Counted from the first letter of the stretch, positions 51,971-59,104 are shown. The stretch is DNA of 64,000 nt from Candidatus Methanomethylophilaceae archaeon (GCA_944320495.1 CALUHR010000008.1:42249-106248), one strand, 5' to 3'. Notes: generated by a model not told the origin, from the sequence alone. Made by a program: numbers and translations.

Positions 51971-53038
51971 ATGTCCGACTTGGATTCCGCGCTCAAGATG
52001 CAGATCGACATGATCAGGGCACAGGCAGAGACCCAGAAGAACATGTACCGGCAGATGTACGGATCCGATCCGGCGATGGCCGAACAGTTCTGCGCCCAGA
52101 TCGATCAGAACACCGAGATGCAGATCAACATGATCATGCAGATGATGGGCGGGAACCAGGATCCCGGGGAGGCCCTGCTCGACCAGATGTCGCATGCGAG
52201 GGACGTCCTCGGACAGCTCGGCTACGGTGAGGGAGAGATATCCGCAGCCATGGGCGACGACGCAGGGGACACCCTCACCGAGAGGGTTCTGGGGGACCTC
52301 GACCCGTCTGAGTTCGGATACGGCGACATCGTGACGGCCATCGCATCCCTCGACGAGCTCGGGGAGATGACCCCCGCTCCGGCGGATGCCGACGGGATTC
52401 GCAGGTTCGAGATCCTCCTGACCGGCATAATCTCCACCCTCAACGACCATCTGCTGGACGGCCTGGACGTGGAGCCGAGGAACGCCGAGAGCACGGACCT
52501 GGTGAGATCCATCCTGTCGAACTACTGGGGAGTGGAGGGGAGGGAGAGTCTCATCGACACCCTGAGGTACCTGATCGTGTCCGGACACACCATGGACTAT
52601 GTGAGCGCACTGGAAGCCATATCGTCCGGCAAGGACGCCGCCGCGCTCCATACCGAGGACATGGACGAGGAGGACATCGCGGTCTCCGACGCCAGGTTCG
52701 CGTTCACGGAGGCGTACGCCGGCAAGGTGGATCCGGTAATGCTCCGCGGGTGGGATCTGGGCAGGGCCGCCAACGTCACCCGCTGGGGATACTTCATCGG
52801 CTTCATCACCGAGGAGGAGGCCTGGGGACTCCTGGACCAGATAGCGGACGGGTGCATGGAGGCCTTCGACTCCTGGAGGTCCTTCGCCCAGTCGTACATC
52901 TTCGGGAGCATGTACTGGAAGTGCCCGTACGGCCCGGACGCATGCTACGAGAACATCGCAGGCCTGATGTTCGCCGTGGAGCACCTGCTCACCGAGGGCG
53001 AATGGAAGGACTCCCCCTGGGCGAGCGGCAGGGCATGA
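51971..53038 (+). CDS. DUF1266-like domain protein
   Basis: YWGVEGRE, WDLGRAANVTRWGY, FDSWRSFAQSYIFG. Confidence 0.7.
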   Translation: MSDLDSALKMQIDMIRAQAETQKNMYRQMYGSDPAMAEQFCAQIDQNTEMQINMIMQMMGGNQDPGEALLDQMSHARDVLGQLGYGEGEISAAMGDDAGDTLTERVLGDLDPSEFGYGDIVTAIASLDELGEMTPAPADADGIRRFEILLTGIISTLNDHLLDGLDVEPRNAESTDLVRSILSNYWGVEGRESLIDTLRYLIVSGHTMDYVSALEAISSGKDAAALHTEDMDEEDIAVSDARFAFTEAYAGKVDPVMLRGWDLGRAANVTRWGYFIGFITEEEAWGLLDQIADGCMEAFDSWRSFAQSYIFGSMYWKCPYGPDACYENIAGLMFAVEHLLTEGEWKDSPWASGRA

Positions 53039-54486
53039 ACCTGGAGGAGCTCGAGGCGGCCTACGGGTACGGCGGGTCGCGCGAAGAGGTCATGAGGGTC
53101 GTCAGAAAGATAGACCCGTCAGAGACGGCGCCGCACGGAGTCACCGCCTTGCACATCGCCGCCCGCCAGGTCGACCCCGAGACGATGGAGGCCCTCCTGG
53201 ATAGGGGATTCCGTGCCGGCGCCACCGACGAGTACGGCAACACCCCGCTGCATATCCTCGCGGTGCAGAGATGGGACGGCCGCGTGTCGAAGATGGCCGA
53301 ATGCACTGACCTCCTGCTGACCCACCGCTGCCCTCCGTCGAGGAGGGACGATCGCGGGAGGTGCTTCTATCACATAGCAGCGCAGATGCACAACCTGCCG
53401 ATGATTTCCGTCATCGGCCAGAGAATGGTGCGCTGCGACGCCCTCCTCGAGGACTCGGGGATGAACGCCCTGCACGTGCTGTGCGATTCGGCATCGAGCT
53501 ACGACTACATCCGCGAGAGCAGACCCGAGGAGTTCGAGGAGAAGGACCGCATGTGCCGCCGCATGGCCGAATGGCTGGTCGGATGCGGCATCGATCCGGA
53601 GGCGGAGACCAGGATCGGCAGGAAGGCCATCGACTTCGCCGTCGGGAACAGGATCAAGCTGACCTCCTCTTTCCTCGCCGGGAACGACGATGCTGTCTCG
53701 GGAGGCATGGACCTCCACCAGGCCGTAACAGTGGACGATGCGGAAGCCATCTCGGCGATACTCTCGGCCGGAGCCGACCCCGATGCGCTCTGCGACAGAC
53801 CGGGCGACTATCTCGGGATGACCCCGCTGATGGTGGCCTGCCGGAGGATGGCCAGGGAATCGGCGGAATCGCTTATCCGTGGAGGAGCATCCGCGTCCTA
53901 TGCGGACGGCCGCGACGGCAGGACCGCCCTCTACCATCTCCTGAGGGCCCTCTCCTCGACGGTGGGGACGGGAAGCAACGCCAGGGACTCGGGCAGCTTC
54001 CTCTCCATGCTGAGGATGGTCGCGGAGGCCCAGGGCACGCCGGATCTCCCGGTGAGCGATGAGGAAGGTCCCGCGCTCTGCTTCCTGGCGGGGAACGACA
54101 GGCTGGGACACACCTCGGACGGGAGGTCCGTGAGGAGCATCGCCTTCGAGACCCTCGCTTCCATGGGCGCGGATGTCGATGCCAGGGACAGCCACGGCCG
54201 CACGCCTCTGATGCTCGCTTGCGGGATCCCGGGGCCGGAATCGGAGGGCATCGTGTCCACCCTGATGGAGCTCGGGGCGGATTGCGACGCCCGCGACGGG
54301 GACGGCACCACCGCCCTCATGAGGGCGGCATCCATCCCGGGGAACGCGGGCATCGACCTCATCAGGGCGATGCTGGACTTCTGCGTGCCCGACCCAGGAC
54401 TGAGGGATTCGAAGGGCAGGGACGCGCTGGAGATGGCATCGGACGCCGGCAACGCCGACGTCGTCCGCCTTCTCCTCTCCCTGCGA
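53035..54486 (+). CDS. Ankyrin repeat protein
   Basis: GVTALHIAA, GNTPLHIL, GMTPLMVA, GRTPLMLA; ends VRLLLSL-CGA, 21 nt before the convergent gene's end. Standard end 54636. Confidence 0.88.
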
Positions 54487-54507: not shown

Positions 54508-55500
54508 TCAGCCCTTGGCACCGGCCGTCAGGAGCATCTCGACGATCTCGGTGAAACCGGACTCCGAAGCGTAATGCATCGCGGTGCGTCCGTCGTTATC
54601 GGCGGCATCGGGGTCCGCCCCGCTCTCGAGCAGTAGCGAGACGAAGTCGTTGCGCCCGTTGCGGGCCGCGAGGATCAGCGGGGTGGATCCCGAGCCGTTC
54701 TTGGCATCCACATCCGCTCCGGCGCTTATGAGCGCCCTGCCGATGTACTGGTTGCCGGCTGATGCCGCAAGGTGCATCGGACGGTCGCCCGTGTTCAGGC
54801 TGGCCGATGCGTCAGCGCCCGCTCCGAGGAGAAGCTCCACGATGCTCAGGTTGCCGCGGTGGACTGCCAGGAAGAGGGCGCTCTCCCCGTCGTCGTTCAG
54901 GGCGTTGACATCCGCTCCCGACTCCAGCAGGACGCGGACGACCTCGCCCTGCGAGTTCCAGCATGCCTGGTGGAGGGGCGTGTTGCCCGACGAATCGGTG
55001 ACGGAGGGTGATCCGGAACCCGCGGCGAGCGTGGATACGAGCCCCTTCAGACCCTTGGACGTCGCGATATCCATGACGGTGTGCCCGTCGTTGTCCGCTA
55101 TGGACGGGTCCGCGCCGTTCTCCAGCAGGAGCTTGGCGGCGTCGACCTTGCCCTCGGAGGCCATCGCCATGAGCGGCGTCCTTCCCTGGCGGTCGGCGGC
55201 GTTGACGTCGGCGCCGGCATCCAGGAGCATGCGGATGACGTCCTTGTTCCCGCTCCTCGACACCATATGGAGCGGCGTGGTGCTGTCGTTGGAGCACGCG
55301 CATGCATCGGCACCGTTCTCGATCAGCATGGAGACCAGGTCGCGGGCGCCCTTCTGGCTGGCGTAGTGGATGGCTGTGAATCCGGAGGGGTCCCTCTTGT
55401 TCACGTCGATCCCGCCCTTGGCGAGCAGGGCCTGCGCCACACCCTTCTGTCCGTTCTTGCATGCGTTCAGGAACATGTTGTCCATCTGTGTCATCATCAT
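54508..55500 (-). CDS. Ankyrin repeat protein
   Basis: About 9 canonical repeats (GFTAIHYA, GRTPLM, GNTPLHQA); start is one of three tandem ATGs. Confidence 0.92.
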   Translation of the reverse strand: MMMTQMDNMFLNACKNGQKGVAQALLAKGGIDVNKRDPSGFTAIHYASQKGARDLVSMLIENGADACACSNDSTTPLHMVSRSGNKDVIRMLLDAGADVNAADRQGRTPLMAMASEGKVDAAKLLLENGADPSIADNDGHTVMDIATSKGLKGLVSTLAAGSGSPSVTDSSGNTPLHQACWNSQGEVVRVLLESGADVNALNDDGESALFLAVHRGNLSIVELLLGAGADASASLNTGDRPMHLAASAGNQYIGRALISAGADVDAKNGSGSTPLILAARNGRNDFVSLLLESGADPDAADNDGRTAMHYASESGFTEIVEMLLTAGAKG

Positions 55501-55955
55501 CCCTCCCTGTGGAACGTCATCAGACCGAATGCCTCCAGCGGTGCGGCGATGCGGCGGGCCTCGTCGGTCTCGCCGCAGTCCGTCAGGCAGAGGCAGTACA
55601 GCCATCTCGCCAGCAGACCGGCGTAAGTGGGATTGCATCCGGGCATGGCCGGATTCATGGGCACCGGAGACATCATACCGGAGATGAGCGCCTCCCCGAC
55701 GGGATCGAACGCCCTCTGCGGGACGCCCTCGGTCAGGCGGCGAAACGCCAGGCCGGAGAGCTCCATGGCCTCGTCACCGCGGCCTGCGGACCTCATGCAG
55801 AATGCCTTGTTGTAGATCGTGCAGGCGTCGTCGGTGGCATCCGCCCTCTGGAGGATCATCCACGCGCCGGGGAGGTCCCCTGCCGCCATCATCTGGTAGG
55901 CGGCGGAGCCGTCGATGGTTGCCTTCGTCTTCACATCGCTGTCGAGGAAACCCAT
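55497..55955 (-). CDS. Hypothetical helical (TPR-like) protein
   Basis: Own ATG at 55955 with GAGGTG RBS directly after the upstream CGA. Confidence 0.7.
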   Translation of the reverse strand: MGFLDSDVKTKATIDGSAAYQMMAAGDLPGAWMILQRADATDDACTIYNKAFCMRSAGRGDEAMELSGLAFRRLTEGVPQRAFDPVGEALISGMMSPVPMNPAMPGCNPTYAGLLARWLYCLCLTDCGETDEARRIAAPLEAFGLMTFHREG

Positions 55956-55964
55956 GCGAACACC

Positions 55965-57179
55965 TCGGACCATCAGCTCCATCACCGATTCCATGCCCGC
56001 GGAGGCCGCCATCTCGCCGGCGGTGACCCCCTTATCGTCGGGTATGTCGTATCTGGCGCCCTTCTTCACGAGCAGCCTGGCCGACTTCTCGTCCCTCCAG
56101 GAGATCGCGTGGTGAAGGGCCGTCCTGCCGTGCGAATCGCAGGCGTCCAGTGCGGCGCCTGCCACCACGAGGGGCTTGACCACGGCCCCGTGGCCGTTGG
56201 AGACGGCCGCCATCAGAGGCATGGTGCCGTCGTTCATCGCGATGTTCGGATCCGCCCCGAGGTTCAGCAGGGCCTCCGAGAGCCCGCCGTCCTGGTAGCG
56301 GTAGGATGTCAGCACGAGGATCAGAGGGGTCATGCCCCTGTCGTCGGCTACGTCGAGGCATCCGACCTTCGACAGTATGGCGATCTTGCGTGAAACTACA
56401 GCCTCCATGCCCGGCACGGATTGCCATTGGCGGCAGACGCTGACGGGGGGCTGCATGACCGCGTAGTGCGCCGCCGTGCGTCCGGAGTTGTCTGTCCGGG
56501 ATGTGTCCGCACCCCTGCCGATCAGCAGATCGGCGGACGCATCGTCCCCGATGAGACAGGCGGCGCAGAGGGGCGTTACTGAATCGAAATCCACCGCGTG
56601 TCCGTATCCCTGACGGGCCTCCGAACCGGGTGCGTCTGGATCGGCGCCCGTGTCCAGGAGCGCCTCGGCCAGATCCCTGTGTCCGAAGAGGACCGACAGG
56701 TGCAGGGGCGTGGCGCCGTATGCGTTGCAGACCATCCAATCTCCGGCATCGCCGGCGAGACGGGCCACGGCGGCCATCTCGGCCTCGCGGTCCCCCGCCC
56801 ACCCGGACCTCTCCATGGAGGCCAGAAGATGGAGGGCGTTGGAACCGGCGCGGTTGCACGATGTCAGGTCGGCGCCCGCCTCGGACAGACCCTTATAGAC
56901 CTCAGGACGGCAGATGCAGTGGGAGGCGCACATCGTCGGCAGCGTCTCCCCGTCGGGGAACCTGACACGGAGATCGAAGCCCCTGCCGGCGAGCATGCCG
57001 ATGAAATCGGTCGCCCGATCGGATTTGAGGGCCCTCTCGATCAGGCCCTCGGCGGCGTTCGCCTCGTCATCGTCATCCATGTCGAATCCTGATATCATCT
57101 CGGCAGCATCCGAAGCGGCCTGCTCCGCCCTGCCCTGGAAGAAATCCAGTTCGATCCTCCTTATCGCATCCCCATCCAT
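55965..57179 (-). CDS. Ankyrin repeat protein
   Basis: GATPLHLS, GRTAAHYA, GMTPL, GRTALHHA; ends VMELMV-CGA. Confidence 0.87.
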
Positions 57180-57198
57180 TATCGGCACCCCTTCGGAA

Positions 57199-57807
57199 TC
57201 GTCTCTGCACAGCATCCACCCTCAGGCCCGAGACCAGTTCGACGAGACGGTCCACCTGGATGTCGATGGCCTCATCCACGGCCTCCCCGTAGAGGAACGG
57301 CAGCGAATGCTTGCCCGTCCGTCCTATCCAGACGATCGACATCAGCATGTTATAGAACACACGGGGATCGAGACGGCTGACCGGGACGCCGAGCAGATTG
57401 AGGACCTCGGCGAAGAGCACGATGCGGTCGTTCTTGAATCCGGCGAACTCCTCGTCGCTCAGCAGCGTCCTGATGTACGTCTGGTCGTCGAAAGTGGCGA
57501 TGAACCATCTGCCGGACAGCAGATCGTCCAGGGTGGTCCTCAGACCGTTGTCCGCGCCGTAGTTCCAGACGTTGGTTCTGAAGCATCCGAGCATGTCCTC
57601 CGACTGGAGGTGGAACATCTCGATTATCAGGGCGGCTTTCGACGGGAAGAACGAGTAGAAGAACGTCTTCGAGATCCCTTCGGGAAGATAGATGTCCTCA
57701 AGGCTGGTCTCCCTGAGACCCTTCTCGGCGAAGACCTCTGCGGAACGCCTCAGCATATTCATGCGGATGGCGTCGCGTTCCTCCGCAGTGTACGCCTTCC
57801 TGGACAT
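57199..57807 (-). CDS. TetR/AcrR family transcriptional regulator
   Basis: FAEKGLRETSLEDI..GISKTFFYSFFPSK; CGA end gives about 202 aa. Confidence 0.88.
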
Positions 57808-57898: not shown

Positions 57899-58948
57899 TC
57901 AGTACGGGTTGGCCTCGGAAACCTCGACCATGGCCCTGATGTTCTCTATCGGCGTCCCATATGGGACCGCGCAACCCGGACCGATGATGAATCCTCCGCC
58001 CTCACCGGCCTCGTCGAAGCATCTCTGGGACTCGCGCCTCACATCGTCGGCGGTCCCGCTCATGATCACCGATACGGGATCTATGTTACCCACGATGGCG
58101 CTCCTCCCCCTGAGGGCCTCCTTCGCGGCCCTCATGTCGACGGCATGGTCGAGACTGAATGCGGCGGCGCCGACCTTGGCGAAGTCCGCCAGCATCGGGC
58201 CGGTATCACCGCAGATGTGGACCATCGTCGGAGCCCCGTAGCGGCTCCTCAGATGGGACACGATGGAGATCAGGTTCCCCATGTTGTACTCCCTGAACAT
58301 GTTGTCGTCGATCATGCTCGCAGATGATACCGGATCGGTGCACACCACATAGTCGGCATCGAAGGACTCGAGCTCCGCTGAGACGATGTCCCTGCATAGC
58401 GCTGCACCCTTGGCTATGACCCTCTTGGCCTCGTCCGGGGCCATGAGCATGTCCATCAGAAGGCTCTCCGCCCCTCTGAGGTACGAGGCGACGGTAAGCG
58501 GCCCCTCGCACCAGGCCGGAGCCATAGCTCCCTCGCATCCCCTGCCCACGGCGGCAAGAGCCTCGATCACGTACCTGTGGAACATCGGCGAGTCCTTCTC
58601 GTCGAACGGATCGTACAGCGGCTTGGCGTCCACATCCTCCGGACTGTTGTAGTAGGCGTTCTTCAGGGACCCGGGCTCGTTCTCCGGGAGCTTTATCTCG
58701 ACTCCGGGGAGGTCCATGAAGATGCCCTTGGTCTCCAGGGGACCGAAGAAAAGGTCCGCGCCCGTGTCGGCCACCCACCTCCTCATGATCTCCGTGATCA
58801 GGGCGGGGTCCTCCCTGCACTCCCTGACGGTGTGGCCGGTGTAGCTGAGCATCGCGCTGTTGCCGAAGTCGCAGACAGGGGCCCTGTCGGGGATCTCGCC
58901 CTTGAACACAGCAACACAACGCTCCTTGGAATCCATCCTGACGGTCAT
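57899..58948 (-). CDS. MtaA/CmuA-like methyltransferase (uroporphyrinogen decarboxylase fold)
   Basis: DRAPV, EGPLTVA, VHICG, GNIDP, GPGCAV (Zn ligands H-x-C ... C). Confidence 0.8.
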   Translation of the reverse strand: MTVRMDSKERCVAVFKGEIPDRAPVCDFGNSAMLSYTGHTVRECREDPALITEIMRRWVADTGADLFFGPLETKGIFMDLPGVEIKLPENEPGSLKNAYYNSPEDVDAKPLYDPFDEKDSPMFHRYVIEALAAVGRGCEGAMAPAWCEGPLTVASYLRGAESLLMDMLMAPDEAKRVIAKGAALCRDIVSAELESFDADYVVCTDPVSSASMIDDNMFREYNMGNLISIVSHLRSRYGAPTMVHICGDTGPMLADFAKVGAAAFSLDHAVDMRAAKEALRGRSAIVGNIDPVSVIMSGTADDVRRESQRCFDEAGEGGGFIIGPGCAVPYGTPIENIRAMVEVSEANPY

Positions 58949-59104
58949 GGTGATACCCGACACGATGATTCGTCGTCTGACGTATTTATAGTACGGATTG
59001 CGGACATCACAAGACTGCGACTTGAGTATGGACGATTGGTCCACGAAATCCTTCCGGATCGGAAGGCTTGGTATCCAGACGTCTGATTCGAGAAAGTTAT
59101 AAAT

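Follow-up and report, generated by a model that had tools for sequence, protein, structure and literature searches.

Sense codons that have become stop codons are known from organelles (NCBI tables 2, 22 and 23): AGA and AGG in vertebrate mitochondria, UCA in Scenedesmus mitochondria and UUA in Thraustochytrium mitochondria. The use of CGA in the archaeon described here resembles these organelle codes in that an amino-acid codon has gone from the interiors of genes and marks their ends. It differs from them in its setting, a free-living archaeal genome (1.8 Mb, 61% GC) with about a quarter of the genes concerned. A further difference is that the cognate tRNA gene is kept and that CGA still stands for arginine at a few conserved sites.

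Two archaeal MAGs from hydrothermal vents have no CGA in their recognisable protein domains, and the author speculates that the codon could be a stop (bioRxiv 10.64898/2026.04.02.715157). Those MAGs have about 50% GC, are without tRNA-UCG and have CGG reassigned to tryptophan; as the author states, the method used there cannot infer stops (bioRxiv 10.64898/2026.04.02.715157). In contrast, the evidence presented here comes directly from gene ends and orthologs, and from a different lineage, gut methanogens. Termination by yeast eRF1 is detectable at CGA, where the factor competes with tRNA-Arg, and it is stronger with the UGA-biased variants L123F/R/Y than with the wild type (PMC7379694). Termination at CGA in yeast is low-level misreading or rescue, whereas here it would be the normal end of hundreds of genes. 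Our literature search found no report of CGA as a stop codon for Methanomassiliicoccales or any cellular genome, apart from the vent-MAG speculation, and no established sense-to-stop code change for any cellular, non-organelle genome.

Two further systems are relevant to the decoding components. Bacterial RF2 (prfB) is autoregulated via an in-frame UGA. By analogy, the release-factor gene of the present archaeon carries an early in-frame codon at which the factor itself would terminate, a candidate for negative feedback. Unlike in prfB there is no frameshift; bypass would consist in the cognate tRNA reading the codon as arginine, and the aRF1 gene has its CGA at different codons across the family. 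In trypanosomatids, ciliates and bacteria, tRNAs whose anticodon stem is shortened to 4 bp are reported to alter how stop codons are decoded (PMC13092985). The likeness lies in a broken 31-39 anticodon-stem pair in a tRNA tied to a code change; the tRNAs described there gain stop reading, whereas the tRNA altered here is cognate to a codon that termination is taking over.

The ankyrin/TPR-like junction

The window analysed is a stretch of 64,000 nucleotides (GCA_944320495.1, CALUHR010000008.1:42249-106248) and forms part of contig 8 of a 1.77-Mb, 61% GC assembly of an archaeon of the family Methanomethylophilaceae. With the standard code, an ORF of 572 aa at 55497-57215 (minus strand) spans a CGA codon (55965-55967), a GAGGTG motif and the ATG at 55955 in one frame. 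A preliminary description of the window had proposed that this ORF is a false ankyrin fusion, split by the CGA and followed by a ribosome binding site and a new start. The minus-strand reading it gave, ATG GTC CGA GGT GTT CGC ATG GGT, is present exactly in the sequence, and we confirmed the layout on that strand: the Shine-Dalgarno-like GAGGTG (55961-55966) overlaps the CGA and is separated by a 5-nt spacer from the ATG (55953-55955). The description also let the last ankyrin repeat end at the CGA. The CGA does lie close to the end of the ankyrin part, but the repeat itself stops earlier: Pfam matches to the ankyrin repeat extend no further than residue 393 of 572, and the CGA is codon 417, about 24 residues further on. 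A short conserved tail, ...GMESVMELMV, connects the two.

The four-stop gene call resolves the region into a row of genes on the minus strand. The ankyrin-repeat protein gene (55965-57179) encodes 404 aa followed by the CGA as putative terminator, and its membership in the ankyrin family is clear from Pfam Ank_2 (E 1.3e-34, 119 bits versus a cut-off of 27.3). The TPR-like protein gene (55497-55955) encodes 152 aa and runs from the ATG at 55953-55955 to a TGA at 55497-55499, which overlaps the ATG of the next ankyrin gene (ATGA). That downstream gene (54508-55500, 330 aa, Pfam Ank E 9.8e-71) ends at a TGA and belongs to the same operon-like row. Within the last 152 residues of the ORF, Pfam TPR_19 scores 22.9 bits, below the cut-off of 25. 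An AlphaFold2 model of the 152-aa protein predicts an all-helical repeat that folds confidently on its own (pLDDT 88.6). The top Foldseek matches of this protein are all TPR proteins, yet they are weak (E at least 0.055).

Upstream of the ankyrin gene lies a gene for a TetR-family regulator of 202 aa (57199-57807, minus strand), which in the four-stop call ends at CGA 57199-57201. It carries the N-terminal helix-turn-helix of this family (Pfam TetR_N, 32.1 bits versus a cut-off of 24). The junction between the two genes had been described as similar to the one at 55965, and it indeed has the same layout, with the CGA, a Shine-Dalgarno-like GGGGTG (57186-57191, minus strand) and, 6 nt downstream of it, the ankyrin ATG (57177-57179). 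The TetR frame contains a second CGA at 57193-57195, so that the minus strand reads CGA TTC CGA in tandem at 57193-57201. With the standard code the TetR frame would reach 57073, an overlap of about 106 nt with the ankyrin gene. The TetR orthologs shown mostly have a TGA 0-8 codons past a conserved LRVD motif; in two of them a CGA comes first. The second TetR CGA aligns with the TGA of two related genomes (G064 and G066) in the context 'ttc TGA gaR ggg'. The homolog P0026, an NCBI-derived protein, begins at the equivalent MDGDAIRR of the ankyrin gene.

Related genomes are informative about the codon at 55965. In two other species of the genus a TGA is found exactly at the position of the CGA, the junctions reading ...CTG ATG ATC TGA GGT CGT ATC ATG (G042) and ...CTG CTC TGA GGT GAT TCC ATG (G062). 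The ankyrin-gene orthologs end with ...ELM[IVM] and then TGA at the same position. Other relatives have TGA, TAA or TAG followed by a 10-nt spacer, and the ankyrin and TPR-like genes are therefore in different frames there. In G064 and in one copy from G075 the junction has CGA, then TGA two or three codons on; G066 has AGG followed by GGT GAT TGA, so an arginine and a short tail are tolerated in that genome. A motif of the type (T/C)GAGGTG, or a close variant, is kept 5-6 nt before the start in 11 related loci. The 16S 3' end was not found in this assembly, and the motif is assigned as Shine-Dalgarno by its conservation only.

The preliminary description had asked whether homologs of 55497-55955 occur as separate genes, and they do. 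All ten matches, from nine other species of the genus, are standalone open frames of 154-190 aa. The same holds for about 20 metagenome clusters (130-159 aa), which all start at the same methionine (MGF[LI]D). In a collection of 5.8 billion proteins the only longer forms are P0026 (560 aa, 97% identical, NCBI-sourced) and P0027 (561 aa, 56% identical). In each of them R stands precisely at the ankyrin/TPR-like junction; their junction codon is deduced from this residue, and they are therefore probably standard-code read-throughs of the same kind of codon. A programmed read-through or a natural fusion should show itself by homologs that are always fused and by the lack of an independent start. 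Here the homologs are standalone, and the Shine-Dalgarno motif and the ATG are conserved.

After CGA 55965 there is no in-frame stop for the next 152 codons, and any read-through would therefore yield the full fusion protein. The base following this CGA (+4) is G; T is found at this position in 55% of CGA ends genome-wide. The RNA fold at the junction has a z-score of -2.5, which is too weak to claim a read-through element.

The window is rich in ankyrin-repeat genes of weak codon bias; besides the two on the minus strand (54508-55500 and 55965-57179) there is a further one at 53035-54486 (plus strand). A URO-D family gene is located at 57899-59044 (minus strand, Pfam E 2e-54). We take it to be a methyltransferase of the MtaA/MtbA type, which would fit a methyl-reducing methanogen.

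CGA at gene ends in this genome and its relatives

CGA is a common trinucleotide in this genome (27.6 per 1000 genome-wide), compared with 0.1-0.34 per 1000 codons in gene cores. Within 1590 coding segments only 35 in-frame CGAs were found, mostly at gene ends. Given this rarity in frame (about 0.1 versus 27.6 per 1000), the pattern at the junction is not due to chance. The gene-core counts were obtained with a seeded max-segment caller; self-trained codon models were dropped, because long antisense ORFs contaminate them in high-GC genomes.

The position of CGA within open frames was analysed for 1101 long ORFs of high GC3. From the first to the last length decile the counts are 523, 285, 105, 50, 19, 28, 46, 69, 122 and 331. 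The ratio of 3'-end to mid-ORF counts is 9.3 for CGA and 3.05 for the next codon. In-frame GC3 is 0.81-0.90 over the 30 codons before CGA and 0.55-0.73 after it (a fall from about 0.85 to about 0.62, located precisely at the codon). This fall is absent at the control codons CGT, CGG, AGA and seven others. A comparison that treated control codons as pseudo-stops was uninformative, since the false tails after CGA contain all codons. A systematic +1 frameshift at CGA was considered and rejected, as no single alternative frame gains GC3 periodicity after the codon.

A crude gene call with four stops gave 1520 genes, with 1093 ending at TGA, 367 at CGA, 45 at TAA and 15 at TAG. About 23% of the genes end at CGA. 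In the window 25 of the 55 called genes end at CGA, compared with 26 at TGA, a larger share than the 23% genome-wide. The next canonical in-frame stop follows a terminal CGA after a median of 21 codons, with 31% of the distances at 50 codons or more; the corresponding values after TGA are a median of 24 codons and 31%. If CGA were read as arginine, hundreds of proteins would therefore have long non-coding tails. At 40 of 212 CGA ends the codon overlaps the next start as CGATG, the counterpart of TGATG or ATGA at TGA ends.

Orthologs have canonical stops at gene ends that are occupied here by CGA, and the coding signal breaks off at this codon. Gene ends were compared with a 400-kb part of the complete genome of a congener (G008) by inspection of the aligned codons; tblastn end offsets did not discriminate, because in-frame downstream genes lengthen the alignments. 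In this comparison 10 CGA ends align exactly with TGA, 22 have TGA or TAA as the next stop, and none is aligned to an arginine codon. The Pelota gene ends with ...LRYRL CGA in this genome and its sister, and in most relatives a canonical stop lies 0-2 codons from this point; two further relatives have CGA precisely at the TGA position of their neighbours. Around aRF1, in 80 named loci of the Methanomethylophilaceae, orthologous gene ends switch repeatedly between TGA and CGA. One gene there, which we take to be DtdA, ends with CGA in 9 cases and with TGA in 22 cases within the genus. The aRF1 locus of Candidatus Methanoprimaticola sp. MG2, a high-coverage relative among the related loci, is 91% identical to the one studied here. 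An artefact of assembly or base calling is excluded, since TGA and CGA interchange in many independent MAGs from different projects and hosts.

In four other genomes of the genus the gene-core frequency of CGA is 0-0.09 per 1000 codons, and 1-9% of the genes end at CGA, compared with 23% here. Because the cores of these congeners are without CGA but only a small share of their genes end with it, avoidance of CGA seems to be genus-wide and its heavy use as a terminator particular to this lineage.

Two genomes of the genus, G008 and G015, differ in another arginine codon. Although CGG is a common trinucleotide there, it accounts for only 0.2-0.4 per 1000 gene-core codons; CGG may be a second arginine codon on its way out in this subclade.

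Release factor, tRNA-Arg(UCG) and remaining sense CGAs

The genome holds one aRF1 and one Pelota. The aRF1 gene (G000:C2:85936-87165, minus strand) has just one CGA in frame, at the codon of a conserved arginine, Arg78 (...SIAA-R-LKTY...). Codon 78 is CGA, and the only CGA of the gene, in 22 of 23 genomes of the genus, and the neighbouring codons vary synonymously. In other families of the order this codon is CGC, CGG, CGT or AGA, and 2-4 CGAs are found elsewhere in the gene. In all 80 loci of the family the aRF1 gene has one CGA or more, almost always in the part that encodes the N-terminal domain: at codon 78 in 45 loci, at codon 25 in 25 loci, and also at codons 27, 123, 11 and 50. The ArgRS gene (C2:84153-85880) is located immediately downstream; in 76 of 79 family loci none of its 30-50 arginine codons is CGA. 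The conserved CGA in aRF1 looks like the result of selection for this codon in the release-factor message, i.e. of feedback.

Two positions in aRF1 set the family or this lineage apart. Three residues past the NIKS motif (residue 65, corresponding to R68 of human eRF1) the family has Met, with Leu in 2 of 80 sequences. The same position is occupied by Arg in solved archaeal and human factors and in six of the seven sequences that represent other families of the order, with Gln in the remaining one. The glycine of the GTS loop (residue 28) is replaced by Ser, giving RST instead of RGT, only in this genome and its sister. Residues 28 and 65 are candidate determinants of CGA recognition. At the position homologous to yeast L123, in the Y-R-C motif, the aRF1 studied here has Arg, and so do the outgroups.

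The gene for tRNA-Arg(UCG) (G000:C13:413317-413390) is retained and looks intact. The alignment model of this tRNA was built on an explicit structure, as an RNAalifold consensus gave no cloverleaf. In 19 genomes of the genus the 31-39 pair is non-Watson-Crick (A.A, C.A or U.C), whereas the other stem pairs covary. Instead of the 31-39 mismatch, the subclade of G007, G008 and G015 shows the anticodon loop CCUCGAC, where C33 replaces U33, and a 27-43 mismatch. Other families of the order have a canonical stem with C31-G39.

CGA is absent from ordinary sense positions in conserved genes with the exception of aRF1 codon 78 and codon 30 of ribosomal protein L18e. At least these two genes need CGA to be read as arginine, and CGA is therefore not a pure stop codon. 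The L18e gene (G000:C13:191557-191913, minus strand) has TGG CGA GAY at codons 29-31 in 56 of 56 genomes across the order, at GC contents of 42-65%, and the CGA is kept also in families in which it is an ordinary codon. To judge from this conservation, codon 30 of L18e is probably an old constraint at the nucleotide level that forces CGA to stay readable as arginine, and it may be the reason why tRNA-Arg(UCG) could not be lost.

As a terminator CGA differs from TGA in its surroundings. A stop-like codon follows within four codons after 32.7% of CGA ends compared with 19.0% of TGA ends (p = 1.6e-7). Among the 150 genes of strongest codon bias CGA is the end of only 4%, compared with 37% of the weakest group. 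Together, the enrichment of backup stops and the avoidance by strongly biased genes point to a leaky CGA. Since the codon looks leaky, a minor fused ankyrin-TPR product is possible.

Proposed termination at CGA and alternative readings

Based on these comparisons we conclude that the ORF at 55497-57215 is very probably not one gene but two, because this methanogen and its relatives appear to use CGA as a fourth, somewhat leaky stop codon. The proposal that the ankyrin fusion is false and split by CGA is supported by the TGA of orthologs at this site, by the standalone homologs and by the genome-wide statistics of CGA. We propose the following sequence of events. Translation of the ankyrin gene from ATG 57179 would end at CGA 55965-55967. 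Reinitiation would take place at ATG 55955 by means of the GAGGTG that overlaps the CGA; the coupled layout in relatives is TGAGGTG. The product of the second gene would be a separate TPR-like protein of 152 aa. The upstream TetR gene would likewise end at CGA 57199-57201. The single aRF1 presumably reads YGA (UGA and CGA) and would compete at CGA with the retained tRNA-Arg(UCG) and its abnormal anticodon arm. This competition would make CGA a weaker stop than UGA, and the early, conserved CGA in its own message would make the synthesis of aRF1 self-limiting.

The ORF could, on the other hand, be a true fusion, in which the loss of a stop by a TGA-to-CGA change joined the two genes and CGA is read as arginine in one main product of 560 aa. 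The open frame across the junction is in line with this reading, and so are the presence of the tRNA-Arg(UCG) gene and the arginines encoded by CGA in aRF1 and L18e. The same holds for the +4 base, which is G and not the preferred T, for the in-frame arrangement with R at the junction that is common to two or three lineages, and for the AGG of G066. However, this genome makes practically no use of CGA as an ordinary sense codon, and a Shine-Dalgarno motif and an ATG are conserved in the 9-nt linker. In relatives the genes are in different frames or parted by canonical stops, and about 20 clusters of standalone homologs stand against two fused forms. We consider a true fusion highly improbable.

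Two other readings would leave two genes at the locus and concern the way in which CGA ends the first of them. CGA might be an unassigned, 'hungry' codon that is not read by aRF1; ribosomes would stall there because tRNA-Arg(UCG) is scarce or poor, and would be released by rescue (Pelota/ABCE1) or drop-off. The anticodon arm of this tRNA is abnormal genus-wide, genes of strong codon bias avoid CGA ends, and stalling at CGA is known in yeast (PMC7379694). Stalling and rescue for about 23% of the genes would be costly, however. The CGATG stop/start overlaps mimic normal termination and reinitiation, and the conserved but position-shifting CGA in the aRF1 gene is best explained by aRF1 acting on this codon. 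A hungry codon is therefore very unlikely, if slightly less so than a true fusion. Least probable is C-to-U editing, by which CGA would become UGA in the mRNA under a standard code. Editing of CGA to UGA creates stop codons in plant organelles, and it would account for the free interchange of CGA and TGA at orthologous gene ends. It would, however, have to be aware of the reading frame, as CGA is very common out of frame (27.6 per 1000), and the sense CGAs of aRF1 and L18e would need to escape it. We are not aware of any comparable mRNA editing system in archaea.

A more elaborate form of termination by aRF1 is conceivable and is put forward tentatively. CGA would then have a dual meaning, being a stop for aRF1 at most sites and arginine at a few by means of a specialised tRNA-Arg(UCG) with a 4-bp anticodon stem. 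The CGA feedback in the aRF1 gene would set the balance between the two, and a minor ankyrin-TPR fusion would be made deliberately at junctions such as the one at 55965.

If CGA is indeed a stop codon, annotation with the standard code misreads up to a quarter of the genes in the genus, and probably in more of the Methanomethylophilaceae. The errors would consist of false fusions, with P0026 as an NCBI-sourced example, false C-terminal extensions and false overlaps. The genome would also represent an intermediate state in the evolution of the code, with one codon shared between a release factor and a cognate tRNA.

Two further loci of this genome have an in-frame CGA of note. At G000:C13:194145 (minus strand; L286) CGA joins a GmhA-like SIS domain in frame to a GmhB-like HAD phosphatase. 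There is no start codon between this CGA and the catalytic FIDRDD motif, and the SIS/HAD joint may be a true read-through fusion. A similar case is located at C5:178733 (plus strand), where a transmembrane tail lies past the CGA.
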